64,000 bases of DNA from Candidatus Omnitrophota bacterium (lineage in GTDB: Bacteria; Omnitrophota; Gorgyraeia; Zapsychrales; Fredricksoniimonadaceae), in NCBI GenBank assembly GCA_015232565.1, contig JADFZK010000001.1:77160-141159 (forward strand), in the 5' to 3' direction. The translations under genes and the position numbers were made by a program. Positions 34,002 through 63,986 of this stretch are shown one piece after another. How positions within the stretch are numbered: the first letter of the stretch is position 1; each line of letters starts with the position of its first letter. Below the pieces are notes generated by a model. That model ran no database searches. It worked only from the letters and a program-made list of their open reading frames with translations, and had not been told where the DNA came from.

Positions 34002-34005
<4 letters not shown>
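32587..34005 (+). CDS. Polyprenyl-phosphate sugar phosphotransferase (WbaP/bacterial sugar transferase family); initiating enzyme.
   Basis: It has N-terminal TM helices and a central Rossmann-like domain ([15 protein letters not shown]). The C-terminal Bac_transf domain reads [18 protein letters not shown] ... [25 protein letters not shown] ... [13 protein letters not shown]. Confidence 0.8.
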
Positions 34006-39555: not shown

Positions 39556-39975
39556 GTGATCACATTTCTAACTATCGTTCATATCATCGCCTGTATTTTA
39601 CTAGTGGCCACTATTTTGATGCAGTCCGGCAAGGGCGGCGGGTTGGCCGAAGGCTTTAGTTCGGCCGAGAATCTGCTGGGCGCGCAGACCAATGTGGTAA
39701 TGGTGCGGGTCACTACCTTTATCGGGGTGATCTTTCTGGTCACTTGCCTGAGCCTGGCGGTTTTAACGGCCAAGCAGGGGACTTCCTTGATGAAAAAGAT
39801 CCCGGCGCGGACTCCGAAAGCCAAGACCGTTGATGTGGACAAGCTTTTTGATCAGGCGCCTTCGCAGACCATTACTTTGAATGCCGAAGGCCCGGCGGGT
39901 GAAGCGGCGGCTGTGCCGGCGGAAAAGTCCGCGGCTCCGGTCAGTCCAGGGGTTTTGGTGAACACTACAAAATAA
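39556..39975 (+). CDS. secG: Preprotein translocase subunit SecG (with a low-complexity C-terminal extension).
   Basis: ITFLTIVHIIACILLVATILMQSGKGGGLAEGF matches the SecG N-terminal TM helix plus the LMQ.GKG motif. The pgk-tpiA-secG order is conserved. The GTG at 39556 has a GGGGGT ribosome-binding site 8 nt upstream. Confidence 0.75.
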   Translation: MITFLTIVHIIACILLVATILMQSGKGGGLAEGFSSAENLLGAQTNVVMVRVTTFIGVIFLVTCLSLAVLTAKQGTSLMKKIPARTPKAKTVDVDKLFDQAPSQTITLNAEGPAGEAAAVPAEKSAAPVSPGVLVNTTK

Positions 39976-41702
39976 TGAGATCTCTTCTTAATATCACAAG
40001 GAGCACGGCATGTTTATTGCTGTGCTCCTTGTTGTTTTCGGGGGCGGGCCAGGCCGCTGATGCCCGCTATGGCGGCGAGCTGGTGTTGGCAATAACTTCC
40101 GATCCGAAATCGTTTAATCCCATACTGGCCAAAGAAACTTCCACTACCACTATCACCGGGCATTTGTTCGAAGGCCTGACCAGGCTGGACGCTTTCGATA
40201 TGACCGTCAAGCCCAATCTGGCCAGTCGCTGGCAGGTAAGCGCCGATGGCCTGACCTGGACCTTTGAATTGCGTGAAGGTTTGCGCTGGTCGGACGGCGC
40301 GCCGTTAACCGCCGATGATGTGGTGTTCACGTTTAATGACCTGATCTTTAACGACGCGGTTCCCAATTCGGCCCGGGATATATATACCATCAAGGGCCAG
40401 CCTTTGCAGGTTGAGAAGGTCGACGCTCTGACCGTGCGCTTTATTTTGCCTTTCCGTTTTGCGCCATTCCTGCGCAGTATGGGCCAGGAGATCCTGCCGA
40501 AACATGTTTTGAGCCCGGCGGTCAAGGCCGGACGGTTTGCTTTTACCTGGGGGATCGATGCGGTGCCGGGAATGGTAGTCGGTAATGGGGCTTTTGTATT
40601 GGAATCGTATTATCCCGGCCAGGAAGTTGTTCTGCGGCGTAACCCATACTATTGGAAGAAGTCACCGGCGGGGGGCGCTTTGCCTTACCTGGACCGGGTG
40701 CGTTATGTGATCGTGCCGAGCATGGATGTGGAACTGCTTAAGTTCCTGGAAGGTTCGATAGACGCCTATGGTGTGCGCGGCATGGATTTTCCCTTGTTGA
40801 AACCTTTGGAGCGTAAGCGCGATTTTCGGATCTTTGACCTGGGGCCGGATATGGGCGCGAGTTTTGTGGTCTTTAATCAGAATCCGGGCCAGGATCAAAA
40901 GACCGGCCAGCCTTTTGTTCCGCCGTTCAAGCTGGCCTGGTTTACCAATCGTGATTTTCGTCGAGCCGTGGCTTATTCCATCGATAAGGCGCGTATAATC
41001 GCGATCGTCAAGAACGGCCTGGGTTATCCGCAGTATTCACCGGAAAGTCCGGGGTCCGGCTTCTTTTATTGTGACCAGGTGCGTAAATACGACTACGATC
41101 CTGCCAAGGCCCGGGAATTGTTGGGCCAGGCGGGCTTCCGGGATGTTAATGGTGACGGGATCCTGGAAGATTTTGCCGGGCATCCTTTGGAGTTCACTTT
41201 GCTGACCAACGCGGATAATACCGAACGGGTGGACATTGCCTCGATCATCCGCCGTGACCTGGAGAATCTGGGGGTGAAGGTTAATTTTCAGCTGGTTGAG
41301 TTTAATACTTTGGTCGCCAAGCTTACTTCTACCTTTGACTGGGAAGTGGTAGTGCTCGGCCTTACCGGCTCGACCGATCCGCATTTCGGGCAGAATGTCT
41401 GGCTGTCATCCGGCCAGTTGCATATGTGGTCGCCCCGGCAGGCGGCTCCGCAGACCCGTTGGGAGAAACGTATCGACGAGCTCTTCGCCGCCGGGGTGCA
41501 GGAGTTGGACGAAACCCGGCGCAAGGCTTATTACGACGAGTACCAGCAGATCGTGGCCGAGGAAGTGCCCATGGCTTATACTGCGCTGGGTGCGCGGCTT
41601 ACCGCGGTGCGCAACAAGTTCGGCAATTTACAGCCTGCCCGGTTTGGCGGGGTGTTCCATAATATCGAGGAACTTTACGTTCTGCCTGGTGAGGGGAGAT
41701 GA
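39975..41702 (+). CDS. ABC transporter substrate-binding protein, family 5 (peptide/nickel/oligosaccharide, Opp/Dpp type).
   Basis: It has an N-terminal signal peptide. The length and motif layout match SBP_bac_5 (DGAPLTADDVVFTFND, WSDG, YYW). Confidence 0.8.
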   Translation: MRSLLNITRSTACLLLCSLLFSGAGQAADARYGGELVLAITSDPKSFNPILAKETSTTTITGHLFEGLTRLDAFDMTVKPNLASRWQVSADGLTWTFELREGLRWSDGAPLTADDVVFTFNDLIFNDAVPNSARDIYTIKGQPLQVEKVDALTVRFILPFRFAPFLRSMGQEILPKHVLSPAVKAGRFAFTWGIDAVPGMVVGNGAFVLESYYPGQEVVLRRNPYYWKKSPAGGALPYLDRVRYVIVPSMDVELLKFLEGSIDAYGVRGMDFPLLKPLERKRDFRIFDLGPDMGASFVVFNQNPGQDQKTGQPFVPPFKLAWFTNRDFRRAVAYSIDKARIIAIVKNGLGYPQYSPESPGSGFFYCDQVRKYDYDPAKARELLGQAGFRDVNGDGILEDFAGHPLEFTLLTNADNTERVDIASIIRRDLENLGVKVNFQLVEFNTLVAKLTSTFDWEVVVLGLTGSTDPHFGQNVWLSSGQLHMWSPRQAAPQTRWEKRIDELFAAGVQELDETRRKAYYDEYQQIVAEEVPMAYTALGARLTAVRNKFGNLQPARFGGVFHNIEELYVLPGEGR

Positions 41703-49224: not shown

Positions 49225-49371
49225 GCAAAAATTTTATAAAATATTTTGCTTTCCCGTTATTTGTGGTATTATTCCTGACATTTGCAGGGTAGGGGTCTTT
49301 CTTCCGGGCCGGCTTTTCATGTATCCGGAGATGGATCAAATCAAAAACAGGGCTTTTTTGGAGAGGTTAAA

Positions 49372-50526
49372 ATGATAGATTATCTTCTTACCGAAGAACA
49401 AACCATGATCCGGGATATGGCCCGTCAGATCACCGATGAAAAGATCCGCCCGGTGGCGGCTGAGTACGATCACACCGAGAAATTCCCATGGGATATTATG
49501 AAGGTCATGGGTAAATCCGACCTTTTTGGTGTTTATATCGATCAAAAGTATGGCGGCATGGGCGGCGGCGTGTTCGAGCTGTGCCTGGCTACCGAAGAAT
49601 TCTCCCGGGGTTGCGCGGGTATCGCTATTTGCTATTCCGCTTCGGCCTTAGGCGCTTACCCTATTATCCTGCATGGTAGTGAAGAACAAAAGATGAAATA
49701 TTTGCCCGCAATCGCCAAAGGCGAGAAGCTGGCGGCTTTTGGTTTAACTGAACCCGCCGCCGGTTCCGATGCCAGTGCTATTCAGACCACGGCCGAGAAA
49801 AAAGGCGATCACTATATCCTCAATGGTACCAAGCACTTTATAACCAATGGTGGTGAGGCCGAGATCTATACCATCATTGCCATGACCGACAAATCCAAGG
49901 GCCCGCGTGGCGCCAGTCTTTTTGTAGTGGAAAAAGGCACTCCGGGTTTTACTTTCGGTAAAAAAGAGGACAAGCTCGGCATTCGCGCTTCCGCCACCCG
50001 GGAGCTGATCTTTGATAATTGCAAGATCCCGAAAGAGAATTTGATCGGTCGGGAAGGTACCGGTTTTATTGCCGCTATGCGGACTTTTGATATGTCACGT
50101 CCGGGCATTGGCGCTCAGGCCGTTGGTATTGCTCAGGGTGCTTTGGATGCCGCGCTCAAATATGCCAAGCAGAGAAAACAGTTTGGCAAATCTATTTCGA
50201 CTTTCCAGGGAATACAGTGGATGCTGGCCGATATGGCCACCGAGACTGAAGCGGCCCGGGCTCTGGTGTATGCTTCGGCCAGGGAAGTTAATGCGGGCAA
50301 GAAAGATGTTGGCACGCATTCGGCTATGGCCAAGTTGTACGCTTCGGATGTGGCTATGAAAGTAGCTACGGACGCGGTGCAGATATTTGGCGGTTATGGT
50401 TACCTCAAGGAGTATCCCGCCGAGAAATATATGCGCGATGCCAAAATAACCCAAATTTACGAAGGTACGAATCAGATCCAGCGCAATATTATCGCCATGG
50501 GCCTGATCAAAGAATCCGCTAAATGA
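49372..50526 (+). CDS. Acyl-CoA dehydrogenase (short-chain/butyryl-CoA dehydrogenase type).
   Basis: It has LTEEQTMIRDMARQ, GLTEPAAGSDASAIQTTAEK, YASD and QIFGGYGY ... IYEGTNQIQR, the ACAD N, middle and C-terminal domains. Confidence 0.85.
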   Translation: MIDYLLTEEQTMIRDMARQITDEKIRPVAAEYDHTEKFPWDIMKVMGKSDLFGVYIDQKYGGMGGGVFELCLATEEFSRGCAGIAICYSASALGAYPIILHGSEEQKMKYLPAIAKGEKLAAFGLTEPAAGSDASAIQTTAEKKGDHYILNGTKHFITNGGEAEIYTIIAMTDKSKGPRGASLFVVEKGTPGFTFGKKEDKLGIRASATRELIFDNCKIPKENLIGREGTGFIAAMRTFDMSRPGIGAQAVGIAQGALDAALKYAKQRKQFGKSISTFQGIQWMLADMATETEAARALVYASAREVNAGKKDVGTHSAMAKLYASDVAMKVATDAVQIFGGYGYLKEYPAEKYMRDAKITQIYEGTNQIQRNIIAMGLIKESAK

Positions 50527-51305
50527 ATATTATAGTCTGCGTTAAACAGGTACCTGATACCACGGAAGTCAGGATCGATCCGGTCACCAAGAACCTTGTT
50601 AGAGAAGGCGTCAAGGCGATCATTAATCCTTTCGACATGTATGCTATCGAAGAAGGCTTGCGCCTGAAAGAAAAGTTTGGCGGCAAGGTTACGGCTATTA
50701 CCATGGGTCCGCCCCAGGCCGAGGCTATTCTTCGGGAAGCCATTTCCCTGGGTTGCGACGATGTTGTTCTGGTCAGCGACCGCGGCTTTGCCGGGTCGGA
50801 TACTTTGGCTACCGGATACACCTTGTCCAAGGCCATTGAAAAGATCAAGGATTACGATCTTATCATTTGCGGCAAACAGGCCATCGACGGTGATACCGCC
50901 CAGGTGGGGCCGGGCATCGCGGCAACTCTGGATATTGCCCAGATCGCGTATGTGCGCAAAGTCGAAGAGATCAAAGACGGCTACATTACGGCCGAACGGG
51001 CCACCGAAGCGGGCTACGAAGTCGTGCAGTCCAAACTGCCCTGTTTGTTGACGGTGGTAAAGGAGATCAATGATCCGCGCCTGCCTTCTTTGAAAGGCAA
51101 GATGCGGGCCAAGAGCGCGGTGGTTACGGTCTGGAAAGCGGCCGATATCCTGGCGGAAGAGAGCCGTATCGGATTGAAAGGCTCGCCGACCTGGGTGTTG
51201 AACATTTTCACGCCGCCGCCCAGGTCAAAAGGTAAAATCTTTGCGGGAGAACCGCAGGAAGCTGTTGATCAGCTTTTTGAATCAGTGAAAGGCTTGCTAC
51301 ATTAA
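50523..51305 (+). CDS. etfB: Electron-transfer flavoprotein beta subunit.
   Basis: It has MNIIVCVKQVPDTTEVRIDP and DLIICGKQAIDGDTAQVGP, the canonical EtfB motifs. Confidence 0.85.
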   Translation: MNIIVCVKQVPDTTEVRIDPVTKNLVREGVKAIINPFDMYAIEEGLRLKEKFGGKVTAITMGPPQAEAILREAISLGCDDVVLVSDRGFAGSDTLATGYTLSKAIEKIKDYDLIICGKQAIDGDTAQVGPGIAATLDIAQIAYVRKVEEIKDGYITAERATEAGYEVVQSKLPCLLTVVKEINDPRLPSLKGKMRAKSAVVTVWKAADILAEESRIGLKGSPTWVLNIFTPPPRSKGKIFAGEPQEAVDQLFESVKGLLH

Positions 51306-51306
51306 A

Positions 51307-52503
51307 ATGAGCGGAATAACAGTCTATAAAGATAAGTGCATCGGTTGCCAGCTGTGCGTAAAGTCCTGTCCTTTCGACGCTATTAAAATGGTTGAAAAGA
51401 AAGCGGTGATCGACCTGGATAAGTGTACCTTGTGCAGTTCCTGCGTGGAAGCCTGCCGCAAGACCGGTGCGATCGAGATCGTGCGCACCACCACCCAGAC
51501 TCCCGATATCGAGAAATACAAAGGGGTATGGGTATTCGTGGAGCAGAGAAAAGGCGTTATTCAGTCGGTGTCGTACGAGCTATTGGGCAAGGCCCGGGAG
51601 CTGGCCGACAAGCTGAAGGTCGAAGTGTCTTGTCTTTTGCTGGGAGCGAATGTTACGAATGTCGCCCAGGACCTGGTGCACCGCGGGGCCGATAAAGTTT
51701 ATGTGGTCGACGACGCGCGCCTGGAAAACTTGCTGGATGAGCCCTACGCGCGTATCGTATCTAATCTTATAAGAAAGCATCGTCCGGAAATCCTTTTGTG
51801 CCCGGCAACCACTATCGGCCGTTCGGTCATCTCTCGCGTTGCCGTTCAGTTGCGTGTGGGTTTAACCGCGGATTGTACCGAGCTGGATGTAAATGTTGCC
51901 GAGCGTTATCTTATGCAGACCCGGCCGGCTTTTGGCGGCAATATCATGGCCACTATTCTTTCCAAGCATCATCGTCCGCAGTTGGCGACGGTGCGCCACA
52001 AGGTGATGAAAGAGGCCGAAGTTGACCTGAAGCGTAAGGGAGTGATAGAGGCTGTAAAATTTGACAATTCTTTCTTTGCTTCCAAGACCAAAGTGCTGAG
52101 CGTGGTTGACGAGGTTACTTCAACTATCAACATAGCCGAAGCCAATGTGATCGTTTCCGGCGGACGGGCTATGGGTAAGGCCGAGAATTTCAAGATTCTC
52201 GAAGATTTGGCCAAGGTGTTAAACGGTGCGGTGGGTGGTTCGCGTGCCGCTATCGACGAGGGTTGGCTGCCGTATTCGCACCAGGTGGGCCAGACCGGTA
52301 AAACAGTTTGTCCAACTATTTATATCGCTTGCGGCATCTCCGGCCAGATCCAGCATTTGGTCGGTATGCAGTCATCCGACATAATTATTGCTATTAACAG
52401 GGACCCTTCCGCACCTATCTTTAACGTTGCTAACTATGGCATTGTAGGCGATCTTTTCGAGATCGTGCCTATGTTGACCAAGCGTTTTAAAGAAGTGCGT
52501 TAA
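51307..52503 (+). CDS. etfA: Electron-transfer flavoprotein alpha subunit with an N-terminal 2x[4Fe-4S] ferredoxin domain.
   Basis: It has CIGCQLCVKSCP and CTLCSSCVEAC (two CxxCxxCxxxC motifs), then the EtfA domain with the FAD-binding C-terminus (IYIACGISGQIQHLVGM). Confidence 0.85.
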   Translation: MSGITVYKDKCIGCQLCVKSCPFDAIKMVEKKAVIDLDKCTLCSSCVEACRKTGAIEIVRTTTQTPDIEKYKGVWVFVEQRKGVIQSVSYELLGKARELADKLKVEVSCLLLGANVTNVAQDLVHRGADKVYVVDDARLENLLDEPYARIVSNLIRKHRPEILLCPATTIGRSVISRVAVQLRVGLTADCTELDVNVAERYLMQTRPAFGGNIMATILSKHHRPQLATVRHKVMKEAEVDLKRKGVIEAVKFDNSFFASKTKVLSVVDEVTSTINIAEANVIVSGGRAMGKAENFKILEDLAKVLNGAVGGSRAAIDEGWLPYSHQVGQTGKTVCPTIYIACGISGQIQHLVGMQSSDIIIAINRDPSAPIFNVANYGIVGDLFEIVPMLTKRFKEVR

Positions 52504-53124: not shown

Positions 53125-56100
53125 ATGTATTTTAAACGGTTGGAAATATTCGGCTTTAAGTCGTTTGCAGAGAAGACTGTCTTTAATTTCGAGCCCGGGG
53201 TCACGGCGGTAGTCGGCCCCAACGGCTGTGGTAAAAGCAATGTCTTCGATGCTATCCGCTGGGTTCTGGGTGAACAAAGCGTTAAGCAATTGCGCGGCGG
53301 CGAGATGCAGGATGTTATTTTTAACGGTACCGACACCAAGCTGGCCTTGGGGTTTGCCGAGGTCAGCGTGGGGTTCAGTAACACCACGCGCACGTTGCAG
53401 ATCAATTCTGATGAAGTGGTGATCACCCGCCGTTTATTCCGTTCCGGTGAGAGCGAATACCTCATAAATAAAGAACCTTCCCGCCTTAAAGATATCACCG
53501 AATTGTTCATGGGTACCGGCGTGGGCGCTGAGTCCTATTCTCTGGTCCAGCAGGGCCGGGTGGACCTGGTGGTCAGCGCCAAAGCCGAAGACCGCCGGAT
53601 GATCTTCGACGAAGCGGCCGGCATCACCAAATACAAATCTAAAAAACGCGAAGCCCAGCTTAAGCTTAAAGAGACCGACGATAATCTTTTGCGTATCAAT
53701 GATATTGTCGTCGAGGTTAAGCGGCAGATCTCGTCCATTGAGCGGCAGGCCCAAAGGGCCCAGCGTTACAAGGAAGAGTTCGAAAAGCTTAAAGGCCTGG
53801 AGCAGGTGCTGGCGTGTTATCAGCTGGATGGCTTTCGCCGGGAGAAAGACGAAGTACTGGCTTTCCTGGCGGAAGTGCAGGGTAAAGAAACCACCGGTTC
53901 GCTCGAGCTGGATGAATACCGTCAGGTAGTGGAGCGCGAAGCTTTGCTCGTGGAGGACTTGGCGGCGCAGGTGCAGTCCTTGCGTGAGCAGGATATAAAA
54001 TTACAGAACCAGATCGACATGGCCAACCGCCAGTCCGGCTTTGATGAAGAGCGTTTGACGAACCTGGACCAGAATGAAGAACGCATTGCCGCGCAAAGAA
54101 TAGTCCTGGCTGAGAAATGCCGCAATCATCAGGAAAAGATCACCGAGCTGGAGGCGGCGCTGGGTCTGTTCGACCAGACAGTTGCGGAAGCTCTGGCCGG
54201 CTTGAACGAGAAAAAGACGGCGCTGACGAATGCCGCCCGGGCTATCGAAGAGTGCCAGGACGCCATGCGCAACGACGAGGAGAGCATCCTGGGCATTACG
54301 TCCCGCCAGGTGCAGAATGTTAATGCTTTGACGGAAGTAATGAAGGAAACGCAGGGGTTCCTGGCGCGCCGCCGCCGGCTGGAAGTGGAGCAGGCCAAGT
54401 CGCAGGGCGAGAAAGAAGATATCGACCGCCGGCTGGCCGGAGTGTCACAGGGCATGGTGGATGTTATGGCCCGGCGCGACCGTTTAAGCCAGGATCTGCA
54501 GCGGGAGAAAGCCCTTTTGGCCAGCCAGAATGAAGAGCTGAATGCCCTTTCTTTGTCTATCGACGGGCTGGAGAAAAAGAAATTTTTCCTGATCTCGCAA
54601 AAAGATTTTATTGAAAAGATGCATGTGCAGTACCAGGATATGCCGGATCCGGTGATCGACGGGCGTTTCCTGTCGGGCAGTGTGCCGGTGGCCGGGCAGA
54701 CCGGGTTTATGGGCAAGATCAAGGAAGTTATTGCGGTGGATCCGGCCCGTAACGAGAATTTGCAGAGCCAGTTAAGCCGTTTTACCGGCCCGGCTCTTTA
54801 CGAAATCATTTGCGAAACCAAATTCATCGAACTGGACCCGCAGTCCCTGGCGGCGCAGATCAGCGCTATTGAGGACGAGATCAAGTCGTTGGTCATTGAG
54901 AAACAGGTTAAAGTGGCAATGGTCTCGGACCAGTCCCGGCTGGTGGAGCGGGTGCAGGCTGATATCCATGCCGAAGAACGCCGTTTGTCGGTGTGTGAAG
55001 CCCAGCAGAATGATATCGGCCTGGAAGCCAGAAAGATCATGGACGAGATCCAGGCGGTGGCTTTGGAGGTGTCCGAGGTGGAGCAGGGTTTGCTGCGCCT
55101 TAAGGATAGTGATGACCTGTTAAAAGCCGAAGCCGCCCGGATCGACGAGGAGCTGGCTTTTATCCGTAACGGGCTTAAAGGCCGGGAAGAATCGCTGGCG
55201 GGCAAGCGTCGGGAACGGGAAGAGGCCGCGGTGGCTTGCGCCCAGATGGAGAGTGAGCTTAAGGCTTTGAAAGATAAAGAACGTTCCTGGCGCGATAATC
55301 TGGCGATGTTCCGGGAGAGCCTCAACAGCTGTCTGGATGAGATCAGCCGGTTGCAGGTTGAAGCGGATTCCTGCGGCGAGCGGCGCCTGAAACTTAACGA
55401 GGACATTGCTCTTCTGCAACGCAATATTGAGGAGTTCAAGGCGGCGAGCCAGGAATTACGCGGCTCATTGGGCCGCCTGGAGGCCGAGGAACAGGATGTT
55501 TCCCAGCGTTTGTCGAGCGTGCGTACGCAGATCATGATGATGGAAAAAGAGATCGCCGACAATCGCGATATGGTCCATGAAAAAGAAATGAAGGTCCAGC
55601 AAATAGAGTACCAGGAGCAGGCGGTCCGGGAGCGCGTGTTCCAGAAATATAACATTGACCTGGCCGTGGCTATGGCTTCGCCGGGTGTGGCTTTGGACCT
55701 GCCTGGTTTCAACGGCGTGGATTCCGAAGGGACTGCGGGTCAGCCGGCGGCCGAGCCGCAGATCGATAGCGAGGCCCTCAAGCGCGATATCCAGGCTTTG
55801 GCCAAGCGTTGCGAATCTTTCGGCGGTGTTAATTTGATGGCGATCGAGGAATTTGAAGAGCTGAAGAACCGCTTTCATTTTCTGACCAAACAGCAAAGTG
55901 ACCTGTTGGCTGCCAAGGACTTGCTGGACCAGACCATCCGCAAGATTAATAAAACCACCCGGCAATTGTTCACCGATACTTTTGTGAAGGTCAACGAGCA
56001 GTTCCGGATGTATTTCCGTATGCTGTTTAACGGCGGCGAGGCCCAGCTGGTTTTGCTGGACCCCGAGAACGCCCTGGAGTCCGGGATCGAGATCGTGGCC

Positions 56101-56565
56101 CGCCCGCCCGGCAAGAAATTGCAGACCATCAGCCTCCTTTCCGGCGGCGAGAAGACCATGACGGCGATCGCTTTGATCTTTGCGGTATTCCGTGTTAACC
56201 CCAGCCCGTTCTGCGTGCTCGACGAGATTGATGCGGCTCTCGACGAGGCCAATGTGGACCGTTTTGCCAGTGTGCTTAAGGAATTCGCCAAGATAGCGCA
56301 GTTCATAGTTATTACGCATAATAAAAAGACTATTGCCCATGCGGATGTGATGTATGGCATTACCATGCAACAGACCGGCGTTTCCCGAGTGGTGTCGGTG
56401 AAATTTGCCGAGAAGGCCAAAGAGCCGCTGGGTGCCGCGGCGATCGAAACGGCAGCGTCCGAAACATCTCCGGCAGTTGAGCCTCAGCAGGAAACCGTCT
56501 CAACTCCGTCGGTGCTCCCCGAAGCGCCAGCCCAGTCCCCGTCCGAAGCTTTCGCTGAAGTATAA
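53125..56565 (+). CDS. smc: Chromosome segregation protein SMC.
   Basis: It has MYFKRLEIFGFKSFAEKTVFNFEPGVTAVVGPNGCGKSN (Walker A head) and long coiled coils. The hinge is followed by the C-terminal LSGGEKTMTAIALIFAVF ... CVLDEIDAALD signature and Walker B/D-loop. Confidence 0.9.
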   Translation: MYFKRLEIFGFKSFAEKTVFNFEPGVTAVVGPNGCGKSNVFDAIRWVLGEQSVKQLRGGEMQDVIFNGTDTKLALGFAEVSVGFSNTTRTLQINSDEVVITRRLFRSGESEYLINKEPSRLKDITELFMGTGVGAESYSLVQQGRVDLVVSAKAEDRRMIFDEAAGITKYKSKKREAQLKLKETDDNLLRINDIVVEVKRQISSIERQAQRAQRYKEEFEKLKGLEQVLACYQLDGFRREKDEVLAFLAEVQGKETTGSLELDEYRQVVEREALLVEDLAAQVQSLREQDIKLQNQIDMANRQSGFDEERLTNLDQNEERIAAQRIVLAEKCRNHQEKITELEAALGLFDQTVAEALAGLNEKKTALTNAARAIEECQDAMRNDEESILGITSRQVQNVNALTEVMKETQGFLARRRRLEVEQAKSQGEKEDIDRRLAGVSQGMVDVMARRDRLSQDLQREKALLASQNEELNALSLSIDGLEKKKFFLISQKDFIEKMHVQYQDMPDPVIDGRFLSGSVPVAGQTGFMGKIKEVIAVDPARNENLQSQLSRFTGPALYEIICETKFIELDPQSLAAQISAIEDEIKSLVIEKQVKVAMVSDQSRLVERVQADIHAEERRLSVCEAQQNDIGLEARKIMDEIQAVALEVSEVEQGLLRLKDSDDLLKAEAARIDEELAFIRNGLKGREESLAGKRREREEAAVACAQMESELKALKDKERSWRDNLAMFRESLNSCLDEISRLQVEADSCGERRLKLNEDIALLQRNIEEFKAASQELRGSLGRLEAEEQDVSQRLSSVRTQIMMMEKEIADNRDMVHEKEMKVQQIEYQEQAVRERVFQKYNIDLAVAMASPGVALDLPGFNGVDSEGTAGQPAAEPQIDSEALKRDIQALAKRCESFGGVNLMAIEEFEELKNRFHFLTKQQSDLLAAKDLLDQTIRKINKTTRQLFTDTFVKVNEQFRMYFRMLFNGGEAQLVLLDPENALESGIEIVARPPGKKLQTISLLSGGEKTMTAIALIFAVFRVNPSPFCVLDEIDAALDEANVDRFASVLKEFAKIAQFIVITHNKKTIAHADVMYGITMQQTGVSRVVSVKFAEKAKEPLGAAAIETAASETSPAVEPQQETVSTPSVLPEAPAQSPSEAFAEV

Positions 56566-56664: not shown

Positions 56665-59600
56665 ATGATGGCGCTAAGCTTCCGATTACGCAGGTGGGTG
56701 TCTTTTTTTGTCTTTTGGGCTTTCCTGGCCGCTGAAACGGTCTCGACGGCACGGATGGCTCCGGGCCTCGGCCTGTCGTCGGAACCGGCTTTGGTGAATT
56801 TAAGCCGGCCGGTTAAGCCGTTGCTTAAAGGTTTACAGCTGGATCCGGCTCAGCCGTACAAGATCAATTTCCTGGTGGATAAAGGCGGCCTGGATAATGA
56901 AGGTAACAAATCCCGGGCGCTGGGTTTTCGCCGGGATACCGATGAGCTGGTGAAATATTTTCTGGCCGGCCTGACGGTTCCCCGGGGTGAGTTCTGGGTT
57001 AACCTTTCGCCGTATGAAGTCCGCAGGATAATCCCCGATGGTTTGGGCCGGACCGGTCTGGGCCGGGTTTTCCTTGAGCAGGACCTAAGGCTGAAGAACT
57101 TAACCGCCAGCCTGTTGTACCCGCAGAGCGTTACCGGTCGAAAGGTCTGGGAGCAGATCTACGCCGCGGCGTATGCAAAATACGGCACCACCGAGATCGG
57201 GATGGATATATTCAACAAAGTGTGGGTAGTGCCTGATGATCCTATGATCTATGAACGGCCTTTGCCGGCTGCCGGCGCGGGCTTGGAGACGGCGTATATT
57301 ACCCGCGCGAAGTTGAAGGTTATGCTGGATTGCGATTATGCGGCGGCAGGTTCCGCCGAGGCCCGTGCGCAGGCCGCTATTGATCCAGGCCAGAGCGGGG
57401 CCGTTGTAAATGCGGAGGTTTCTTCAGCCAGTGATCATGAGCTGGCCAGGAATATTCTGCGTAATGTTGTTATTCCCGTGCTGGAACAGGAAGTAAATGA
57501 AGGCGCTGGTTTTGCGCCATTACGGCAGGTTTACAATGCTTTGATACTGGCGGGATGGATGAGAAGCAAGATCCAGGCGCGGGAATTGGCTGCCTATGTT
57601 GATGCCAATAAGACTGCGGGGGTGGAAAATGGCGAGCCGGGCCTGAAAGAACGGGTCTGGAACAAGTATGTTGAGACATTCCGAAAAGGTGTTTTTGATC
57701 TTATACAGGAAGAGGAAGATCCCGCAACGCATGAACTTCTGCCGCGCAAATATTTCTCCGGGGGTTTTGATCTCAGCCAGGCGGCAGTCCCGCGGGTCAG
57801 TCACGATCTGGACGCCTCGGCGCTTCCTGTGAGACAGGAAATGGTGACGTATAGAATTAATCCGTTATCAGGCAATGGGGTGTTTAATATGGCGGACCTG
57901 GAGCGTCAGAAGAAGCCCCGGAAAGTAATTACTGAACAGCCCGCTGATTCGGACTCATCGGCAAATGCATTGGCAGATCTGTCAATTGAGGCAGATGAGC
58001 TGGTCCCGGAGCAGGTGCCTCTCGGTTCTAAAGAGCGGGAGCAGTGGATAGCTGGGCATATGGTGCCAGATACGGATCTGGAATTTAGTCTTGGGCGTAG
58101 GGCTGTTTTTGCCGATTATGTTAAAGCCGCCCGGGAAGCTTTTGCGGTGAAACATCATTCCAGGCAGTCGCGCTTGCGCGCAGGCGACTTTGGAGTGCAG
58201 GCACTTAATGTTCTTGTTCAGGAGTATGCGGCCAAAAATCGTTCCGGGATTATCGATGTAGGAAGCTTGATCCCGATGTTGGAGAGTTTTGCACCACTGG
58301 CGTATGACACCGGGTCTTTACAAGCCGTAGTGGATTTTATTAAAGTTAATTCATTGATTGATCAGCATAATATCGGAGCTTTGGCAAACCTTTTGCAGTC
58401 AGCCAAACTAGTTGGTTTGCGGACCGAGCTGTCCTTCTGGTTTCTGCAAGAAGAGATCCAAATGGATAATTTTATGACTAATATGCAAAGCCTGTTGTTT
58501 GCCTTGGAGAATCAACCTGCAGAAGCCTTAATGAGTAGGCTGGTTGGGCGAATGGGCTGGATTCAGGTAATGCATAGTACTGTTCGGCGACGTATTCAAG
58601 AAAGGGTCAAGCCGAAGGGTATAGGGATCCGGCAAATTATGACTGAGGCTGAAAAGGCGGTCTGGCGGGGTTTTTTTGTTGAATTTGAACAGATATTAAA
58701 TGATGGTGCTTTGCGGTCGTTCTTTGCACAAAGTTCATTTGAGGATATTTATGATGATGTGGTTTTTCACATCCATAATGTTTTGTCTTTAGTTGAGCGT
58801 GGAGAATTGCCGTTTATGACAGAAAACGGGACTGTGGCGGAGGCGATCGGGCGGGCGCATATTCCGGCAGAAACAATGTTCTTGCATATCAGCCCGGTTG
58901 TTAGGACGGCAGGAATAGAAAATCTTATTAAGGTCTTAAGATCCAGAGACAGGGCTTTTTCGGATGGTGAACTATATTTTCTGGATCGGTTAGGGAAAAG
59001 ATATTTTGTCCATAGTTTAGGAACTGATATTCGGGGATATTTTCCGGTAATTTCTGGCTTGATCGGCTTGGTTTCGCGTTATGTCAATGGGGGTTTTGAA
59101 GAGGTTCGGGAGGTGAATGATTTAGGGTCGGCTCAGCAGATTATTGGAGAATTGAATACCATTGCGAACATGCACGAGATGCGTCATGTGGCAGATGTGG
59201 CAGATGCATTGTCGGTTTTCTTGGTTTATGGTATTACTGCCAGGCCGGAAGATCAGGCGGTTTTCGATCTGTTGGAAGAGCGGCGTTTGGCGATGTGGGA
59301 CCTGATCAAGGCCTTGGCATATATGATCGGAAACTTTAAGTTGGAAACCGACCGCTCGGTCTCTGTGTTCTCTTTGGCTGAGATTAAAAGAATGTTGCTT
59401 GCTGTTGAGACATTGAATGCTCAGCTGGTTAAACATTTACAGGATTATGAGGTGCCAGAGGATTCTTTGGAGTTAATGTTGGAGTCTGTGGATTCAAGCT
59501 ATGACAGCATGTTTAGTCTTGAGCGGATTATCGAGCTTGCCGGATCAGGCGTGGCTAGTCCTGCAAGGGGGGCTTTCCGGGAGATACTTCAGGAGGTTAT

Positions 59601-62600
59601 TAAGCAGATCTCCAAATCTCAAGATGGTTTCGCCGGAACAATAGAAGGGGTACTTCCTGATGTGCGGATCCTTCGTTACGACATTTATTTATTGCTTAAA
59701 AATCTGGTCGTTAATGCCAAACAAGCGGGGGCTCGAAATGTGGTTTTGACGGCCCGGGCGGTTGGCACTGAAGTTTCAGGATCGGGATCAAAAGGTACTG
59801 GGCTGGAGCTGGTGGTTAAGGATGATGGGCCGGGAATGGCTGAGGAACAAGTTTCCAGGATAATGAGCCGGCAGGGTTTTTCCACCAAAGAGCTGGGCCA
59901 GGGAAAGGGCCTGTTGGGTGTGTGGCAAATAGTGGATCGTTATAACGGTGTGATGAAGGTCAAATCAGCCCCGGGTCAGGGGGCAACGTTTACGATTGTT
60001 TTTCCGGAAAGCGCATCGGCAGGCGGGGTGCGCATTGAAGGGCAGTCAGCATTGCTACCGTTAAGTGAAGATCTCGCCGGTAATGTGGCCGATCACGCCG
60101 CCCAGTCCGAGTTGCTGGCGCAGTTTCCGGAGGAGTATTTTGACCGTGAGTCAATCATTGCCCGGTTACGCGGTATGCCCGGCCCGGAATACAGTATTGC
60201 CTATGAGCCGTTTGTGGTAATGGGGGAAGGGCGGGAGGTCTCGGTTAAAGTTGCCTGGAACATCATTATTAAAGGAACGATGAGAAGCGCGCATTTGACA
60301 GTGAGGTTAAACGGGCAAGGAAATCAATATTATGAAGTGGATTATGATTACAATATCAGTGCTGGTGTTGAGCGTTTAATAAATGCTCATGAGTATGCCA
60401 GTTTTGAGAGAACTCCGCGAATGAAGGGCCTACTTAAAGCGTTGCGCTTCTTGGCGCTTGATCGAAAGGTGCCTGTTATAAATGTTAGGTTAATGAATTC
60501 AGAAACTTTAAGTCTTCTTATGAGTTTCGATAATATGGGAGCTGCACATTCTCAGAAGGCAATTTCGTTAATAGGCAGAACGACGCCAGCCTATTTCTTG
60601 TGGTGGGACATGACTGCGTTTGAAGATGTGTATTTGCCTAGCGGGTTGCGGCTATCTATCGGGCGTTATTGTTTTAATTTTAATCAATTTGGTTCTTCGG
60701 AGAAAGCCGAGCGTTTGCAAGGGATGTTCCGTCAAGCCACGGAGGTCGAGCTGGCTAATTATGCCGGGCCGGTTGATATTAAACTTGCACCGGAACGCCG
60801 CGATCTGTTGCGTGCCCGATACCCCGGCCGTGGCGCGATTGAAGCCCTGGCTGCTGTATTCAAGTATGAGCGAAAGAAGGTGCCGGTAAATGGCGATGCC
60901 TACGATCGCATTCTGTCCTCGGCCCTTCAGCGTCAAGAAAAGCGCTTGCGTTCTATTGCCGCCGCGAGTCTCAGTCAAAAGGAAATGGCAATTAACCCGG
61001 CGGCTTCGGTTGTGGCGGATAAAACAAAAGATTTCTCCGCGGCTCAGGAGGCGTTTACGGCACGATTCAAGCCTGTTGAGTTTAGCGGCGCAGGCAGGCT
61101 GGTTCGGATGGAGACATACGTAGATGACTTCTTTTACAAAAGTATTTTGAAGAACGGCTTTGTCCCCAGAAGCCTTAGGGCTGATCCTGGTATTGGCGTA
61201 ACGTATTTTCCGGATAATGTATCATTTCTCTTGTTGTTCGATTATTTAAAAAATCTGGGCATGCTGTTATCAACGAATAATTCCGGGGATGATGTTTCTA
61301 ACATTATTTACCTGCTGGATCCGCAAAAGGTTAAGGCGGGCCGCCAAAGTTTTGAATTGGCGGGAAGTTTCTTTGCTGAGGATTCTAAGCGTGACAAAGT
61401 ATTCAAACGGGGTTTGGCAATGCTGGGCTATACGGAAAATGACAAGTGGACTGGGCGCTTAAATGCGGCGCCCGATGAAATTCAGGCCCGCGACAAGGAG
61501 ATTGTTCCGTTTGATTATGTGGATAGCGTGGTTGTTCACCCGGACAACTTCGATACGGTTGTGCGCTGGAATGCCCAGATGGGAAGAAATGATCTGAAGG
61601 TATATGTTTTTGATCCGCAAAACAAGCGGGAATATGTCCTTTATGAGCCTAAAGAGCTTTCGGCAGGTTTGTTGCCGGAAAAGCCAGGAATCCAGGCTGA
61701 TTCGGGTTTGATCGGGTTGGAGGCGTTGAGTGCGTTGTTAAAAAGCCCTGGCGAGCGTACGCCCTTTCCTGTGGAGGCGTTTGACCTTCAGTATAATGTC
61801 AATAAATTACGGGCTCTGAGGGGAAGCAAGAAAAAGAGCGTTTCTTATTGGCCGTTTAAAGTGGTAGCGGGCGGACGGGAGGTTTTAGTTAGCATTGTTT
61901 GGGAAAGGGGAGAATTATTAACGGGGCAGGAGCATTTCTCTTTTAAAATTTTCTTTGATGGAGAAAAGACTGAAGGTTTTTGTTTGAATTTTTCCTACGG
62001 GAATGGCGTTGACCAGAAGCAAGGGATCATTGATAGCAATGCTTTGTCGTTGACGAGAACACCTGAAGCCGGGGAGATTGTTAAAGTGTTAAGCCCTTTG
62101 ATTTTGGCTGGTTCGGGGGGTGTGCTTGAAGGATCAGAGACTAAGTCTGCCGCCCAGTCCGAGTTGCTGGCGCAGTTTCCGGCGGAGTTTTTTGACCGTG
62201 AGTCAATCATTGCCCGGTTACGCGGTATGCCTGGCCCGGAACGCAGTGTTTCCTATGAGCCGTTTGTGGTAAGGGGGGAAGGGCGGGAGGTGTCTGTTAA
62301 AGTTGCTTGGTATATGTCTTTATCCGGAGACAAAGAATTAAAGTATCGTTTGAGCATTATTCTTAATGGGGATAAAAAACAATATTACACGGTTTATTAC
62401 GACTACTATCGGACTATTGAAGGAAGGGAGAAATTAAGGTCGGTTGATGAGTATGCCAGTTTCAAAGATGCCCCGCGCATGGCCGGATTGTTTAAGATAT
62501 TGCGTTCTTTAGCGCTGGACCGGAGTGTCCCTCTTATTGATGCAAATATAACCAATCAGGAAAGCCTCGATCTGTTAAGAAGTTTTGCTTATCCGGGGGA

Positions 62601-63303
62601 TAATGTTTTAGGGGTGGCGCATTCGCAGGAAGCGGTCACCTTGATAGGCAGAGTGACACCGGAATATTTTCTATGGTGGGATATGACTTCTTATGTTGAA
62701 AACCTATATTCACTAGATGGGTTTAAGTTTTCGCGGGGGCGTTATTGTTTTAATTTTAATCAATTTGGTTCTCCGGAGAAAGCCGAGCGCTTGCAAAGAA
62801 TGTTTCGTCAAGCCACTGAGATCGAGCTGGCGTATTATGCCGGACCGATTGATATTAAGTTTTCGCCGGAACGCCGCGATCTGTTGCGTGGCAAATACCC
62901 CGGCCGTGCCGCTGTTGAAGCCCTGGCCGCTGAATTCAAGAATGAGCGAGCGCAGCTGCCGGAGAAAGGCGATGCCTACGATCGCATTCTGTCTTCAGCC
63001 CTCGAGCGGCAGGAAAAGCGTCTGCAAGTTATTGCGTCCACTTTGGACTTTGCCGATAGAGCGCAGGTTCCAGAAGATGCATCGTCATCCGGGGCGTCTG
63101 CTGAGGCTTCGGTTGTTCCTGGTGGTGTGGACATGAACGCTGCAATGGCGCCGGGTGTTGGCGGGCCAGCCGCGGAGACTATTAGTGAGGCGAAGAGTGG
63201 TGCAACTGGCGATATTCTGGGTTTCGAACCGGTCTTCATTGGCGTTAAGACTGTCCATGACCTGCCGGCGTTTCTGGCTCCTGCCGGGCTCTTGGCGGAA
63301 TGA
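56665..63303 (+). CDS. Giant (2,212 aa) putatively secreted protein with an embedded GHKL/HATPase_c ATP-binding core and two copies of an uncharacterised domain of about 290 aa.
   Basis: The N-terminus MMALSFRLRRWVSFFVFWAFLAAETVS looks like a Sec signal peptide (n-, h- and c-regions). Near the middle it has LLLKNLVVNAKQAG (N-box), VKDDGPGM (G1), GQGKGLLGVWQIV (G2) and GQGATFTIVFP. A duplicated module begins AAQSELLAQFP(E/A)E(Y/F)FDRESIIARLRGMPGPE. Confidence 0.7.
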   Translation: MMALSFRLRRWVSFFVFWAFLAAETVSTARMAPGLGLSSEPALVNLSRPVKPLLKGLQLDPAQPYKINFLVDKGGLDNEGNKSRALGFRRDTDELVKYFLAGLTVPRGEFWVNLSPYEVRRIIPDGLGRTGLGRVFLEQDLRLKNLTASLLYPQSVTGRKVWEQIYAAAYAKYGTTEIGMDIFNKVWVVPDDPMIYERPLPAAGAGLETAYITRAKLKVMLDCDYAAAGSAEARAQAAIDPGQSGAVVNAEVSSASDHELARNILRNVVIPVLEQEVNEGAGFAPLRQVYNALILAGWMRSKIQARELAAYVDANKTAGVENGEPGLKERVWNKYVETFRKGVFDLIQEEEDPATHELLPRKYFSGGFDLSQAAVPRVSHDLDASALPVRQEMVTYRINPLSGNGVFNMADLERQKKPRKVITEQPADSDSSANALADLSIEADELVPEQVPLGSKEREQWIAGHMVPDTDLEFSLGRRAVFADYVKAAREAFAVKHHSRQSRLRAGDFGVQALNVLVQEYAAKNRSGIIDVGSLIPMLESFAPLAYDTGSLQAVVDFIKVNSLIDQHNIGALANLLQSAKLVGLRTELSFWFLQEEIQMDNFMTNMQSLLFALENQPAEALMSRLVGRMGWIQVMHSTVRRRIQERVKPKGIGIRQIMTEAEKAVWRGFFVEFEQILNDGALRSFFAQSSFEDIYDDVVFHIHNVLSLVERGELPFMTENGTVAEAIGRAHIPAETMFLHISPVVRTAGIENLIKVLRSRDRAFSDGELYFLDRLGKRYFVHSLGTDIRGYFPVISGLIGLVSRYVNGGFEEVREVNDLGSAQQIIGELNTIANMHEMRHVADVADALSVFLVYGITARPEDQAVFDLLEERRLAMWDLIKALAYMIGNFKLETDRSVSVFSLAEIKRMLLAVETLNAQLVKHLQDYEVPEDSLELMLESVDSSYDSMFSLERIIELAGSGVASPARGAFREILQEVIKQISKSQDGFAGTIEGVLPDVRILRYDIYLLLKNLVVNAKQAGARNVVLTARAVGTEVSGSGSKGTGLELVVKDDGPGMAEEQVSRIMSRQGFSTKELGQGKGLLGVWQIVDRYNGVMKVKSAPGQGATFTIVFPESASAGGVRIEGQSALLPLSEDLAGNVADHAAQSELLAQFPEEYFDRESIIARLRGMPGPEYSIAYEPFVVMGEGREVSVKVAWNIIIKGTMRSAHLTVRLNGQGNQYYEVDYDYNISAGVERLINAHEYASFERTPRMKGLLKALRFLALDRKVPVINVRLMNSETLSLLMSFDNMGAAHSQKAISLIGRTTPAYFLWWDMTAFEDVYLPSGLRLSIGRYCFNFNQFGSSEKAERLQGMFRQATEVELANYAGPVDIKLAPERRDLLRARYPGRGAIEALAAVFKYERKKVPVNGDAYDRILSSALQRQEKRLRSIAAASLSQKEMAINPAASVVADKTKDFSAAQEAFTARFKPVEFSGAGRLVRMETYVDDFFYKSILKNGFVPRSLRADPGIGVTYFPDNVSFLLLFDYLKNLGMLLSTNNSGDDVSNIIYLLDPQKVKAGRQSFELAGSFFAEDSKRDKVFKRGLAMLGYTENDKWTGRLNAAPDEIQARDKEIVPFDYVDSVVVHPDNFDTVVRWNAQMGRNDLKVYVFDPQNKREYVLYEPKELSAGLLPEKPGIQADSGLIGLEALSALLKSPGERTPFPVEAFDLQYNVNKLRALRGSKKKSVSYWPFKVVAGGREVLVSIVWERGELLTGQEHFSFKIFFDGEKTEGFCLNFSYGNGVDQKQGIIDSNALSLTRTPEAGEIVKVLSPLILAGSGGVLEGSETKSAAQSELLAQFPAEFFDRESIIARLRGMPGPERSVSYEPFVVRGEGREVSVKVAWYMSLSGDKELKYRLSIILNGDKKQYYTVYYDYYRTIEGREKLRSVDEYASFKDAPRMAGLFKILRSLALDRSVPLIDANITNQESLDLLRSFAYPGDNVLGVAHSQEAVTLIGRVTPEYFLWWDMTSYVENLYSLDGFKFSRGRYCFNFNQFGSPEKAERLQRMFRQATEIELAYYAGPIDIKFSPERRDLLRGKYPGRAAVEALAAEFKNERAQLPEKGDAYDRILSSALERQEKRLQVIASTLDFADRAQVPEDASSSGASAEASVVPGGVDMNAAMAPGVGGPAAETISEAKSGATGDILGFEPVFIGVKTVHDLPAFLAPAGLLAE
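60097..60955 (+). repeat. Copy 1 of an approximately 860-bp intragenic direct repeat (the partner lies 2,052 bp downstream).
   Basis: Near-identical stretches occur at 60097-60250 and 60640-60955, matching 62149-62300 and 62695-63025. They are also visible as near-identical out-of-frame ORF translations (60620-60889 and 62717-63136). Confidence 0.85.
62149..63025 (+). repeat. Copy 2 of the approximately 860-bp intragenic direct repeat.
   Basis: See copy 1. The protein-level identity of the two modules is about 65-70% overall, with identical blocks GRYCFNFNQFGS and AYDRILSSAL. Confidence 0.85.
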
Positions 63304-63333: not shown

Positions 63334-63362
63334 TTGACATTATGTATGTTATAAGCTACACT
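63334..63362 (+). promoter_or_regulatory. Candidate promoter for the toxin-antitoxin pair (TTGACA-N17-TACACT).
   Basis: TTGACA at 63334-63339 and TACACT at 63357-63362, immediately upstream of the ATG at 63368. Confidence 0.25.
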
Positions 63363-63367
63363 TATGA

Positions 63368-63700
63368 ATGACAATGACTAAGACAATCATTTTCTATCAA
63401 ACGCTGACCGGAGAAGAACCAGTAATGGAATGGTTCCTGTCTTTTCGGGATAAAATATATCGGCACCGTATTCAGGCAAGGATCGACAGAATAAAACAAG
63501 GCAATTATGGAGATCATAAACGTTTAAATGGAATCATAGAGATTAGAATGGACTTTGGTAAGGGGTACCGGCTCTATTGTGGAGAAGAAGGTCAAGTTCT
63601 TGTAATATTACTTGCCGGTGGAGACAAGTCAACGCAAGGCCGGGACATAAAAAGAGCCTTGGAATATTGGAGGGATTATCATGATCAAAAGAAAATTTAG
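63368..63700 (+). CDS. Type II toxin-antitoxin toxin, RelE/ParE superfamily (HigB-like 'addiction module killer').
   Basis: It has QGNYGDHKRLNGIIEIRMDFGKGYRLYCGEEGQVLVILLAGGDKSTQGRDIKRA. This follows the conserved pattern of the addiction-module-killer family (..GNFGD.K.V..GV.ELR...GPGYR.Y......LIILL.GGDKSSQ..DI..A). Confidence 0.7.
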   Translation: MTMTKTIIFYQTLTGEEPVMEWFLSFRDKIYRHRIQARIDRIKQGNYGDHKRLNGIIEIRMDFGKGYRLYCGEEGQVLVILLAGGDKSTQGRDIKRALEYWRDYHDQKKI

Positions 63701-63986
63701 AACATACGATGAGGCTATGATTGCACATTATAAGCAACATCCCGACGAACTTAAAGGGTATGTAAGTGTTGCTTTGTCTGAATATCAGAAAGACGGTGAT
63801 GAGAAGGCCTTTCTTTTAGCTCTTTCTCTTGCAACGCAAGTTCATGGTGGTTTTAGCAAGCTTTCCAAAGCTACTGGCTTAAATCGTGAAAATCTTTACA
63901 AAGCATTGTCAGTGCGCGGTGATCCACGCCTATCAACGATTATGCAGGTTATGGGAACCCTGGGCTTGTCATTAAAGATCGGTTGA
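63681..63986 (+). CDS. Type II toxin-antitoxin antitoxin (HigA-like 'addiction module antidote', HTH).
   Basis: It has DEKAFLLALSLATQVHGGFSKLSKATGLNRENLYKALSVRGDPRLSTIMQVMGTLGL. This follows the conserved antidote-family pattern. It overlaps the toxin gene by 20 bp. Confidence 0.7.
   Translation: MIKRKFRTYDEAMIAHYKQHPDELKGYVSVALSEYQKDGDEKAFLLALSLATQVHGGFSKLSKATGLNRENLYKALSVRGDPRLSTIMQVMGTLGLSLKIG

Follow-up and report, generated by a model that had tools for sequence, protein, structure and literature searches.

The proteins closest in kind to the one described here are the giant proteins of the Omnitrophota, bacteria for which two studies propose a host-dependent or predatory lifestyle (PMC10066038; bioRxiv 10.1101/2023.11.21.568195). 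Long Omnitrophota proteins that combine a signal peptide or transmembrane (TM) segment with PF02518, methyltransferase and glycolytic or pyruvate phosphate dikinase (PPDK) domains, some of them predicted to be extracellular, are on record in three studies (bioRxiv 10.1101/2023.11.21.568195; bioRxiv 10.64898/2026.06.07.730766; PMC12419801). The published giants ('archaeovorins', dockerin-type proteins and a 916-protein catalogue of long proteins) string cytoplasm-type domains together behind a leader or TM segment, with PF02518 and methyltransferases among the commonest and some enzyme domains predicted to be extracellular. They measure at least 10 thousand amino acids (kaa), up to a class of >10-30 kaa, are rich in TM helices and contain SecA_DEAD, C39 or dockerin domains. 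Here we describe a gene from the same phylum, found in a 64,000-nucleotide stretch of contig JADFZK010000001.1 (the window). Its 2,212-residue product, hereafter the query, also begins with a leader and contains PF02518, and its family has the same common domains, but it has no TM segment past the leader and no SecA_DEAD, C39 or dockerin domain. We show that the query belongs, as a divergent representative, to a very large, essentially Omnitrophota-restricted family composed of a Sec-type leader, a conserved N-terminal domain (N-domain, or head), a hypervariable cargo and a conserved C-terminal domain (CTD, or tail).

In its logic, this family is closest to systems that place a constant address on variable payloads, and it lacks the defining features of each. 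Cargo proteins of the type IX secretion system (T9SS) of Bacteroidota likewise have a Sec leader, often with Gln at +1, and a conserved extreme C-terminal domain of ~70 residues on otherwise unrelated proteins. They have, however, no obligatory conserved N-terminal domain, and the Omnitrophota belong to the Planctomycetes-Verrucomicrobia-Chlamydiae (PVC) group, which is not known for T9SS; neither Por_Secre_tail nor other T9SS C-terminal models of Pfam and NCBIfam matched the query or four canonical family members. MARTX toxins and LapA-like RTX adhesins keep conserved ends for export, retention or translocation around swappable internal modules, and MARTX payloads act in the target-cell cytoplasm. 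These are type I secretion substrates with RTX GGxGxD repeats and no Sec leader, whereas the query has a Sec-type leader and no Pfam match to RTX or HemolysinCabind. TpsA/CdiA and other polymorphic toxins offer the sequence of Sec leader, conserved N-terminal 'address' domain and variable remainder, in many paralogues. Their two-partner secretion (TPS) domain is a beta-helix (Haemagg_act, unmatched in the query by Pfam), whereas our N-domain is predicted to be alpha+beta with long helices; their C-terminus is variable, whereas here it is conserved; and no TpsB-like or other conserved neighbour was found in 79 family loci. Finally, sensor histidine kinases (HisKA plus HATPase_c) share with the query a histidine kinase (HK)-type catalytic ATP-binding (CA) domain with N, G1 and G2 boxes, but also have a DHp/H-box, a TM sensor topology and a receiver partner, none of which was detected for the query.

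Full-text searches found no mention of the N-domain or CTD motifs or of such a family, and the passages searched in three Omnitrophota giant-protein studies and in the lipocone paper describe no shared N- or C-terminal domain. Long signal-bearing multi-enzyme Omnitrophota proteins, often with PF02518, are already catalogued; the head-and-tail chassis and its scale appear to be new to the record.

A conserved head and tail around variable cargo

The gene is a single uninterrupted open reading frame (ORF), as an original prediction made from the letters of this DNA had stated, and corresponds to public record MBF0386335.1 (locus HQL20_00600), a 'hypothetical protein' from a Candidatus Omnitrophica metagenome-assembled genome (MAG), on a contig of 141,577 bp. 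NCBI places the start at codon 12 (GTG; 2,201 residues); we favour the ATG because the family consensus leader has a basic n-region. A TAA lies in frame immediately 5' of this ATG, and therefore the ORF has no upstream extension and hides no longer N-terminus. The earlier suggestion that a misannotated start might conceal a TM-anchored cytoplasmic protein is ruled out on the 5' side by this stop; the leader, with its positive-inside arrangement, is further evidence against it.

A basic n-region, a hydrophobic core and an AxA-type site form the textbook pattern for Sec export and signal peptidase I cleavage. The N-terminus of the query, which the prediction had called Sec-like, bears this out by heuristic analysis: an n-region with a charge of +3, a 13-residue hydrophobic core and a small-x-small site (Table 1), immediately ahead of the N-domain. 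The pattern is family-wide. Complete leaders from 94 family proteins have n-regions with a median net charge of +2 and uninterrupted cores with a median length of 13 residues (range 8-20); in 79 (84%) the cleavage pattern is [AVSTG]-x-[AGS]↓Q, mostly as AxA↓Q, SxA↓Q or VxA↓Q, and there is no lipobox Cys. Right after the site follows a conserved mature N-terminus, LPxPGxMVxLSPxFxPxxLKG. The sequence RLRRW in the query raised Tat in place of Sec export as a candidate, which was rejected, as the twin arginine is not conserved in family leaders. Beyond residue 60 of the query, the Kyte-Doolittle mean over 19-residue windows does not exceed 1.39; by hydropathy there is therefore no internal TM candidate, and the leader is the sole hydrophobic segment.

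The extent of the family was assessed through the N-domain. In a search of 5.8 billion protein clusters at E<=1e-3, at least 1,691 clusters matched the query by way of this domain. Similarity of the best 119 matches (1.2-3.5 kaa) is confined to query residues ~25-400 and always lies at the matches' own N-terminus. The taxon-bearing source names among the matches listed are all Candidatus Omnitrophica or Omnitrophota, save one that reads Candidatus Aceula. A scan of one genome per GTDB species gave at least 577 confirmed N-domain loci, nearly all in MAGs labelled Omnitrophota or Omnitrophica. The contigs with other labels, most likely the result of mis-binning or generic taxonomic labels, include 'uncultured Planctomycetales' loci from binchicken MAGs (e.g. 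L018, L031, L035) and a 4.9-kb 'Lysobacterales' contig (L059, JBLINE010000094.1). The 79 loci retrieved hold 102 family ORFs, and a single assembly contributes as many as 8 of the copies in this sample. The complete ORFs are 133 to 3,341 residues long (median 1,180), and 18 loci contain 2-4 tandem copies. Family genes are often arrayed head to tail with a spacing of ~15-200 bp and unrelated cargo (four copies in L052; three each in L003, L006 and L022). The source MAG of the query contributes at least six paralogues to the top 120 matches.

The N-domain is ~340 residues long and has many invariant polar residues. Its family motifs are FDFILDxGD, WVNLSPYEKDRIIP, TEMGRDLLAQDY, FNKVWIVP, EVNEGKNFAxLRQVY and IPRKYFSGG; the query has WVNLSPYE (residues 111-118), EVNEGAGFAPLRQVY (276-290) and LPRKYFSGG (359-367), and so contains the family pattern of WVNLSPYE, EVNEG..F..LRQ.Y and PRKYFSGG. 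Pfam, NCBIfam and PADLOC returned no match for the domain; an anti-phage defence role, considered as a candidate, was dropped on the PADLOC result. Modelling with AlphaFold2 (AF2) gave a pLDDT of 68.9 and a pTM of 0.66. No relative was found in the PDB, which is a weak statement because the model is only moderately confident. Together with two relatives (P0002 and P0009), the query forms a subfamily that is divergent at both the N-domain and the CTD.

Because the C-terminus of P0002 matched the tail of the query, we compared C-termini across the family. They are mutually similar in 116 of the 120 top matches, and GG[IVL]D[LFM] occurs within the last 130 residues in 111 of these 120. The consensus of ~65 residues, GGIDLn..l..G..i.F..DPa.l..lqnapGf.PVIinI.P...l..FLG, has no model or structural match in Pfam, NCBIfam or the PDB. 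A hidden Markov model (HMM) built from 111 canonical CTDs, with the query's subfamily left out, detects the tail of the query, whose middle part is divergent (Table 1). The prediction had described the rest of the protein, outside its ATPase core, as novel sequence; this fails at both ends, where the first ~370 and the last ~60 residues are conserved family domains.

Head and tail occur together. Of 77 complete N-domain ORFs in independent GTDB loci, 70 bear the CTD as well; the end of the CTD is 0-7 residues short of the stop codon in 63 of 72 cases. Four of the seven ORFs lacking a CTD belong to genes that a frameshift or stop has split, and the CTD piece follows directly downstream. Such split genes (N-domain ORF, then CTD ORF, on the same strand) lie at 9896-12840 in L017, 9851-13544 in L024, 6101-9670 in L041 and 16091-18982 in L036; they could reflect assembly errors, pseudogenes or programmed events. 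Pairwise identities of N-domains and CTDs are correlated (Spearman 0.60, a value reached by none of 300 label permutations). After PRKYFSGG, conservation falls from ~100% to ~20% over a single residue, and at GGIDL it climbs just as sharply; both blocks therefore have a Gly-Gly at their cargo-facing edge, which might be a processing site or purely structural. In the query gene, the ends are also richer in G+C (N-domain, 56752-57819, 0.554, with 0.60 at third codon positions; CTD, 0.586) than the cargo segments (57985-63042, 0.43-0.51), a difference that could reflect different constraints or a mosaic origin.

Between these ends, the proteins differ. At least one Pfam domain was found in the variable part of 61 of the 120 top matches, among them HATPase_c-type domains in 15, S-adenosylmethionine (SAM) methyltransferases in 13 and PPDK or other phosphoenolpyruvate (PEP)-utilising domains in five. 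Further cargo domains are Pkinase/RIO/ABC1, PP2C, SNF2 helicases, NDK, NUDIX, guanylate kinase, transketolase/DXP synthase, His-phosphatase, ATP-grasp, glycosyltransferases, and TPR, HEAT and Ank repeats. With shared cargo defined as similarity over at least 50% of the cargo, it was common to none of 83 same-genome pairs and to 2 of 1,045 other pairs, while the N-domains of same-genome paralogues have a median identity of 53%, against 51% between genomes. On these identities, recent gene conversion between the conserved ends of paralogues was rejected as a candidate. Since cargo is unrelated and N-domains are equally diverged within and between genomes, each genome holds a collection of payloads, old and distinct, on a single chassis. 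The cargo is largely made up of enzyme types that use cytoplasmic cofactors (ATP, SAM, PEP). The ATP-binding domain behind a signal peptide, to which the prediction had drawn attention, is a real paradox, and it is a property of the whole family.

The GHKL domain and other cargo of the query

The cargo of the query consists of an orphan region, an HK-type GHKL domain, two and a half copies of a module A and one module B. The GHKL core was located as predicted. It is the only Pfam domain found in the query (PF02518, 54.7 bits against a cut-off of 26.4), and its boxes are all intact: the N-box NLVVNAKQAG (residues 1013-1022), G1 DDGPGM (1053-1058) and G2 GQGKGLLGVW (1078-1087). In NCBIfam, only the C-terminal catalytic parts of many histidine-kinase models match the query, and the closest solved relatives in the PDB are ZraS (9jfj, E=2e-10), CckA and EnvZ.

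The original prediction offered an atypical sensor as one reading. For the query to be such a sensor, the HEMRH motif of MHEMRHVADVADAL would be a displaced H-box, and the protein would autophosphorylate and signal to a response regulator encoded elsewhere. In favour, canonical H-boxes have HE[LM]R as their core, the CA domain is of HK type with best matches to ZraS, VirA, AtoS, CckA and EnvZ, and weak PDB alignments reach the DHp helix-2 region (EnvZ 4kp4, 8f71). The weak H-box-like motif is indeed present, with its His 180 residues (~175 in the prediction) ahead of N-box Asn1017, against a usual ~110; its role as an H-box is not supported. Searches found no homologues of residues ~441-945, in which it lies, and saw no conservation of HEMRH among relatives; a search with residues 431-1130 gave two weak kinase matches only, both to the CA part, and residues 821-992 alone had no kinase match in the PDB. 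The H-box columns of true kinases (P0121, AHDYNNFL; P0122, AHHFNNLL) align to SVFSLAEIKRML in the query, where there is no His, and an upstream xHxLGN..L..I motif of some relatives aligns weakly to QQIIGELNTI, with Gln at the His column.

Domain searches point the same way. At E<=10, no HisKA, HisKA_2, HisKA_3 or HWE domain was detected in the query; at E<=1, Pfam showed no DHp-type match in five HATPase-bearing relatives; and none of the 120 top matches lists a HisKA-type domain, against the 15 with HATPase_c-type domains; a receiver is listed in one only. The predicted absence of receiver, HAMP and PAS domains was confirmed with Pfam and NCBIfam, even at E<=10 on sub-segments. No Response_reg was found in the query, its neighbours encode an SMC protein upstream and a toxin-antitoxin pair downstream with no receiver, and hydropathy gives no membrane-anchored topology that would put the kinase core in the cytoplasm. 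With no detectable DHp or phospho-acceptor His domain, receiver or membrane anchor, the query is therefore not a two-component sensor kinase, and we consider even an atypical one highly improbable. Several of the five relatives bear tandem CA domains. Two tandem HATPase_c matches with no DHp detected occur in P0010, P0094 and P0055, and the alignment of P0010 reads as though it had a third CA-like repeat; GHKL proteins do not usually have 'orphan' CA domains in multiple copies.

The duplicated module of ~290 residues that had been predicted is module A, of ~300 residues. Its two full copies are 65% identical over 306 residues (E=2e-127), and a third, partial copy had escaped the prediction. 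In an AF2 model, the module has six long antiparallel strands with helices and a C-terminal helical hairpin, and no informative structural relative was found. Module B gave no match in Pfam and PDB profile searches. Its relatives (P0011, P0127, P0128, P0129) share the ordered elements LLxRGI ... VS[FL]SL ... DE[IV], with an invariant Glu, in a spacing that recalls the R-S-E triad of ADP-ribosyltransferases. An ADP-ribosyltransferase-like assignment (R...SxS...E) was set aside as no more than a candidate idea, given the negative Pfam and PDB profiles and the degenerate SxS of the query (VSFLLL).

Proposed export of the payloads and competing readings

We favour, with moderate confidence, the explanation that a family with a bookend chassis exports interchangeable payloads, in this case including a GHKL domain with no detectable DHp. 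We are most confident that Sec would move the protein across the inner membrane and that signal peptidase I would cut the leader. Next in rank, head and tail would form one chassis through which the proteins are exported, anchored, assembled or delivered; either shared machinery would recognise the two ends or they would recognise each other, and interchangeable payloads would be carried to the envelope or exterior of ultra-small, probably host-dependent bacteria. Ranked third, the payloads may act as effectors in the cytoplasm of another cell, which is the most economical reading because they need ATP, SAM or PEP, and which would suit the lifestyle proposed for the phylum (PMC10066038; bioRxiv 10.1101/2023.11.21.568195). 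Last comes the suggestion that the GHKL domain may work as a DHp-independent ATP-binding, ATPase or protein-kinase-like module. Among the three options of the original prediction, a very large surface or secreted effector, an atypical sensor and a hidden TM-anchored protein, the first is thus the one favoured, on the family-wide Sec/signal peptidase I-type leader and the lack of a later TM segment.

Several points weigh against this explanation. The cleavage site of the query, STA↓R, is less canonical than the AxA↓Q of the family, and the leader assignment is drawn from heuristics and family conservation. Crossing of the outer membrane, transfer into a host and any enzymatic activity are presumed from sequence. 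The N-domain, with its many invariant polar residues, might be an enzyme in its own right and not a handle. No secretion-system gene or dedicated partner proved to be conserved beside the family genes when 1,792 ORFs of the 79 loci were clustered all against all; recurrent neighbours were only shadow ORFs or generic REC, HD-GYP, HK and ABC genes. A cytoplasmic location would remove the paradox altogether, and domains that depend on ATP, SAM or PEP are to be expected in proteins of the cytoplasm.

That last point is the starting place for a membrane-tethered cytoplasmic enzyme scaffold, in which the N-terminal hydrophobic segment would escape cleavage and serve as an anchor, and most of the protein, the ATP-binding GHKL domain included, would stay in the Omnitrophota cytoplasm, where the cargo enzymes have their cofactors. 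The cytoplasm-type cargo enzymes and the intact GHKL motifs suit such an arrangement, and a recent study prefers the cytoplasmic face for TM-only long Omnitrophota proteins with PF02518 or methyltransferases (bioRxiv 10.64898/2026.06.07.730766). We regard it as unlikely. The basic residues stand before, not after, the hydrophobic core, an order for which the positive-inside rule predicts N-in/C-out; the median core is signal-peptide-like and too short for a stable TM helix; the small-x-small↓Q site recurs at a constant spacing from the conserved mature N-terminus that follows it; and the query has no second hydrophobic segment able to reverse the topology.

Two other alternatives are compatible with export. 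The proteins could be blocks of a surface coat or polymer, the head binding the tail of another or the same molecule (e.g. by strand complementation) in a lattice or filament that displays the variable middles. Head and tail are obligately coupled and co-vary, the mature N-terminal stretch is strongly conserved yet predicted to be disordered in the monomer model, the CTD has a strand-like PVIINIQP motif, and Omnitrophota cells have been described with a coat of giant proteins (PMC10066038). Simple co-inheritance could explain the co-variation, however, head-tail binding is a conjecture, and ATP- or SAM-dependent enzymes would be of no obvious use on a surface; we find this arrangement doubtful. 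The Gly-Gly edges suggest, alternatively, a polyprotein precursor that a protease would cut at ...YFSGG↓ and ...GG↓IDL..., freeing the cargo enzyme or enzymes. Conservation does end exactly at an invariant GG on the cargo-facing side of both blocks, and C39 (double-glycine) peptidase domains are among the commonest in giant Omnitrophota proteins and have been proposed as their processors. Against cleavage, the match is so far purely a coincidence of sequence and the GG possibly just structural, the residues ahead of both GG pairs depart from the classical pattern of double-glycine leaders, and no C39 gene is linked to the family in the 79 loci. We judge a polyprotein to be quite improbable. 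The favoured exporting chassis also has a bolder form, which we put forward tentatively: head and tail may be a previously unrecognised, phylum-wide pair of export or delivery signals, defining a new Sec-dependent route by which dozens of unrelated cytoplasm-type enzymes per genome (kinase-type ATPases, methyltransferases, phosphatases, PEP-utilisers) would be placed into or onto partner or prey cells. Within such a route, payloads may be released by cleavage at the Gly-Gly boundaries.

The surrounding window and meaning of the family

The giant gene lies between an SMC gene and a toxin-antitoxin pair (Table 1), and no functional link between it and the SMC gene is evident. A sigma-70-like promoter match occurs at 63334-63362, near the toxin-antitoxin pair. 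The acyl-CoA dehydrogenase and electron-transfer flavoprotein (ETF) genes have their best NCBIfam matches, all below cut-off, among acryloyl-CoA reductase AcrABC subunits, and may form an electron-bifurcating module. Nearly all long ORFs of the window are on the plus strand; only two convincing minus-strand ORFs were seen, in 30126-31659. GC skew is positive in each 2-kb bin (0.05-0.28), and no tRNA genes or Rfam matches were found in the 64 kb.

Table 1. Features of the giant gene and of the surrounding window (positions in the window; aa, residues of the query).
Feature	Position	Strand	Basis or remarks
Complete gene, 2,212 aa, ATG start	56665..63303	+	ORF listing and translation
Sec-type signal peptide, aa 1-29	56665..56751	+	n: MMALSFRLRR; h: WVSFFVFWAFLAA; c: ETVSTA↓R; heuristic analysis and family pattern
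Family N-domain, aa ~30-367	56752..57765	+	Ends in invariant PRKYFSGG; family HMM against window, E=3.7e-136
Cargo-facing Gly-Gly, head (aa 359-367) and tail (aa 2152-2158)	57739-57765; 63118-63138	+	Family-wide conservation edges
Orphan region, aa ~441-945	57985..59499	+	No detectable homologues
H-box-like MHEMRHVADVADAL, aa 836-849	59170-59211	+	Inside orphan region
HK-type GHKL ATP-binding (CA) domain, HATPase_c aa 1006-1115	59680..60009	+	PF02518, E=1.6e-14
Module A copy 1, aa 1137-1434	60073..60966	+	Rare alpha/beta module
Module B, aa ~1460-1700	61042..61764	+	Rare; also in P0011 (3 copies), P0127, P0128, P0129
Module A copy 3, partial, aa ~1701-1814	61765..62106	+	N-terminal sub-domain only; 27% identity, E=3e-9
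Module A copy 2, aa 1821-2126	62125..63042	+	65% aa, 72.7% nt identity to copy 1
Family CTD, aa 2152-2205	63118..63279	+	Divergent version, PGGVDMN...GFEPVFIGVKTVHDLPAFL; HMM E=1.9e-8; 7 aa before stop
B12-binding radical-SAM enzymes	4905-6350; 23056-25068		Same-strand 30-kb gene cluster
480-610-aa proteins	10162-11802; 13337-15172; 25275-26711; 28567-30081		Same 30-kb cluster; no Pfam match at E<=1e-5
Sugar transferase	32587-34005		After 30-kb cluster
PGK	37505-38728		After 30-kb cluster
SBP_bac_5 solute-binding protein	39975-41702		After 30-kb cluster
Acyl-CoA dehydrogenase, then ETF-beta, ETF-alpha with N-terminal 2x[4Fe-4S] ferredoxin domain	49282-52503	+	NCBIfam
SMC chromosome-segregation protein, full length	53125-56565	+	TIGR02168, E=9e-258; 99 bp from giant gene
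Toxin-antitoxin pair, directly downstream of giant gene	63368-63986	+	RelE/ParE-family toxin (TIGR02683 upstrm_HI1419, E=3e-29) overlaps HI1420-type antitoxin (TIGR02684, E=4e-15)

The Omnitrophota, nanobacteria that are uncultured, are believed to live on other microbes or to prey on them, and discussion has so far centred on their giants of >10 kaa. The family described here is a more numerous and tractable class, with proteins of about 0.4-3.5 kaa in at least 1,691 clusters, one chassis and a different payload in each paralogue, and it places the cytoplasm-type ATP-binding domain behind a signal peptide in a family-wide account. HK-type catalytic domains are used repeatedly in this family without a detected DHp, a poorly understood mode of GHKL function. 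If the chassis is an export or delivery device, the family would define the effector repertoire of a whole phylum, and its ends would provide two short, searchable sequence tags for effector discovery.

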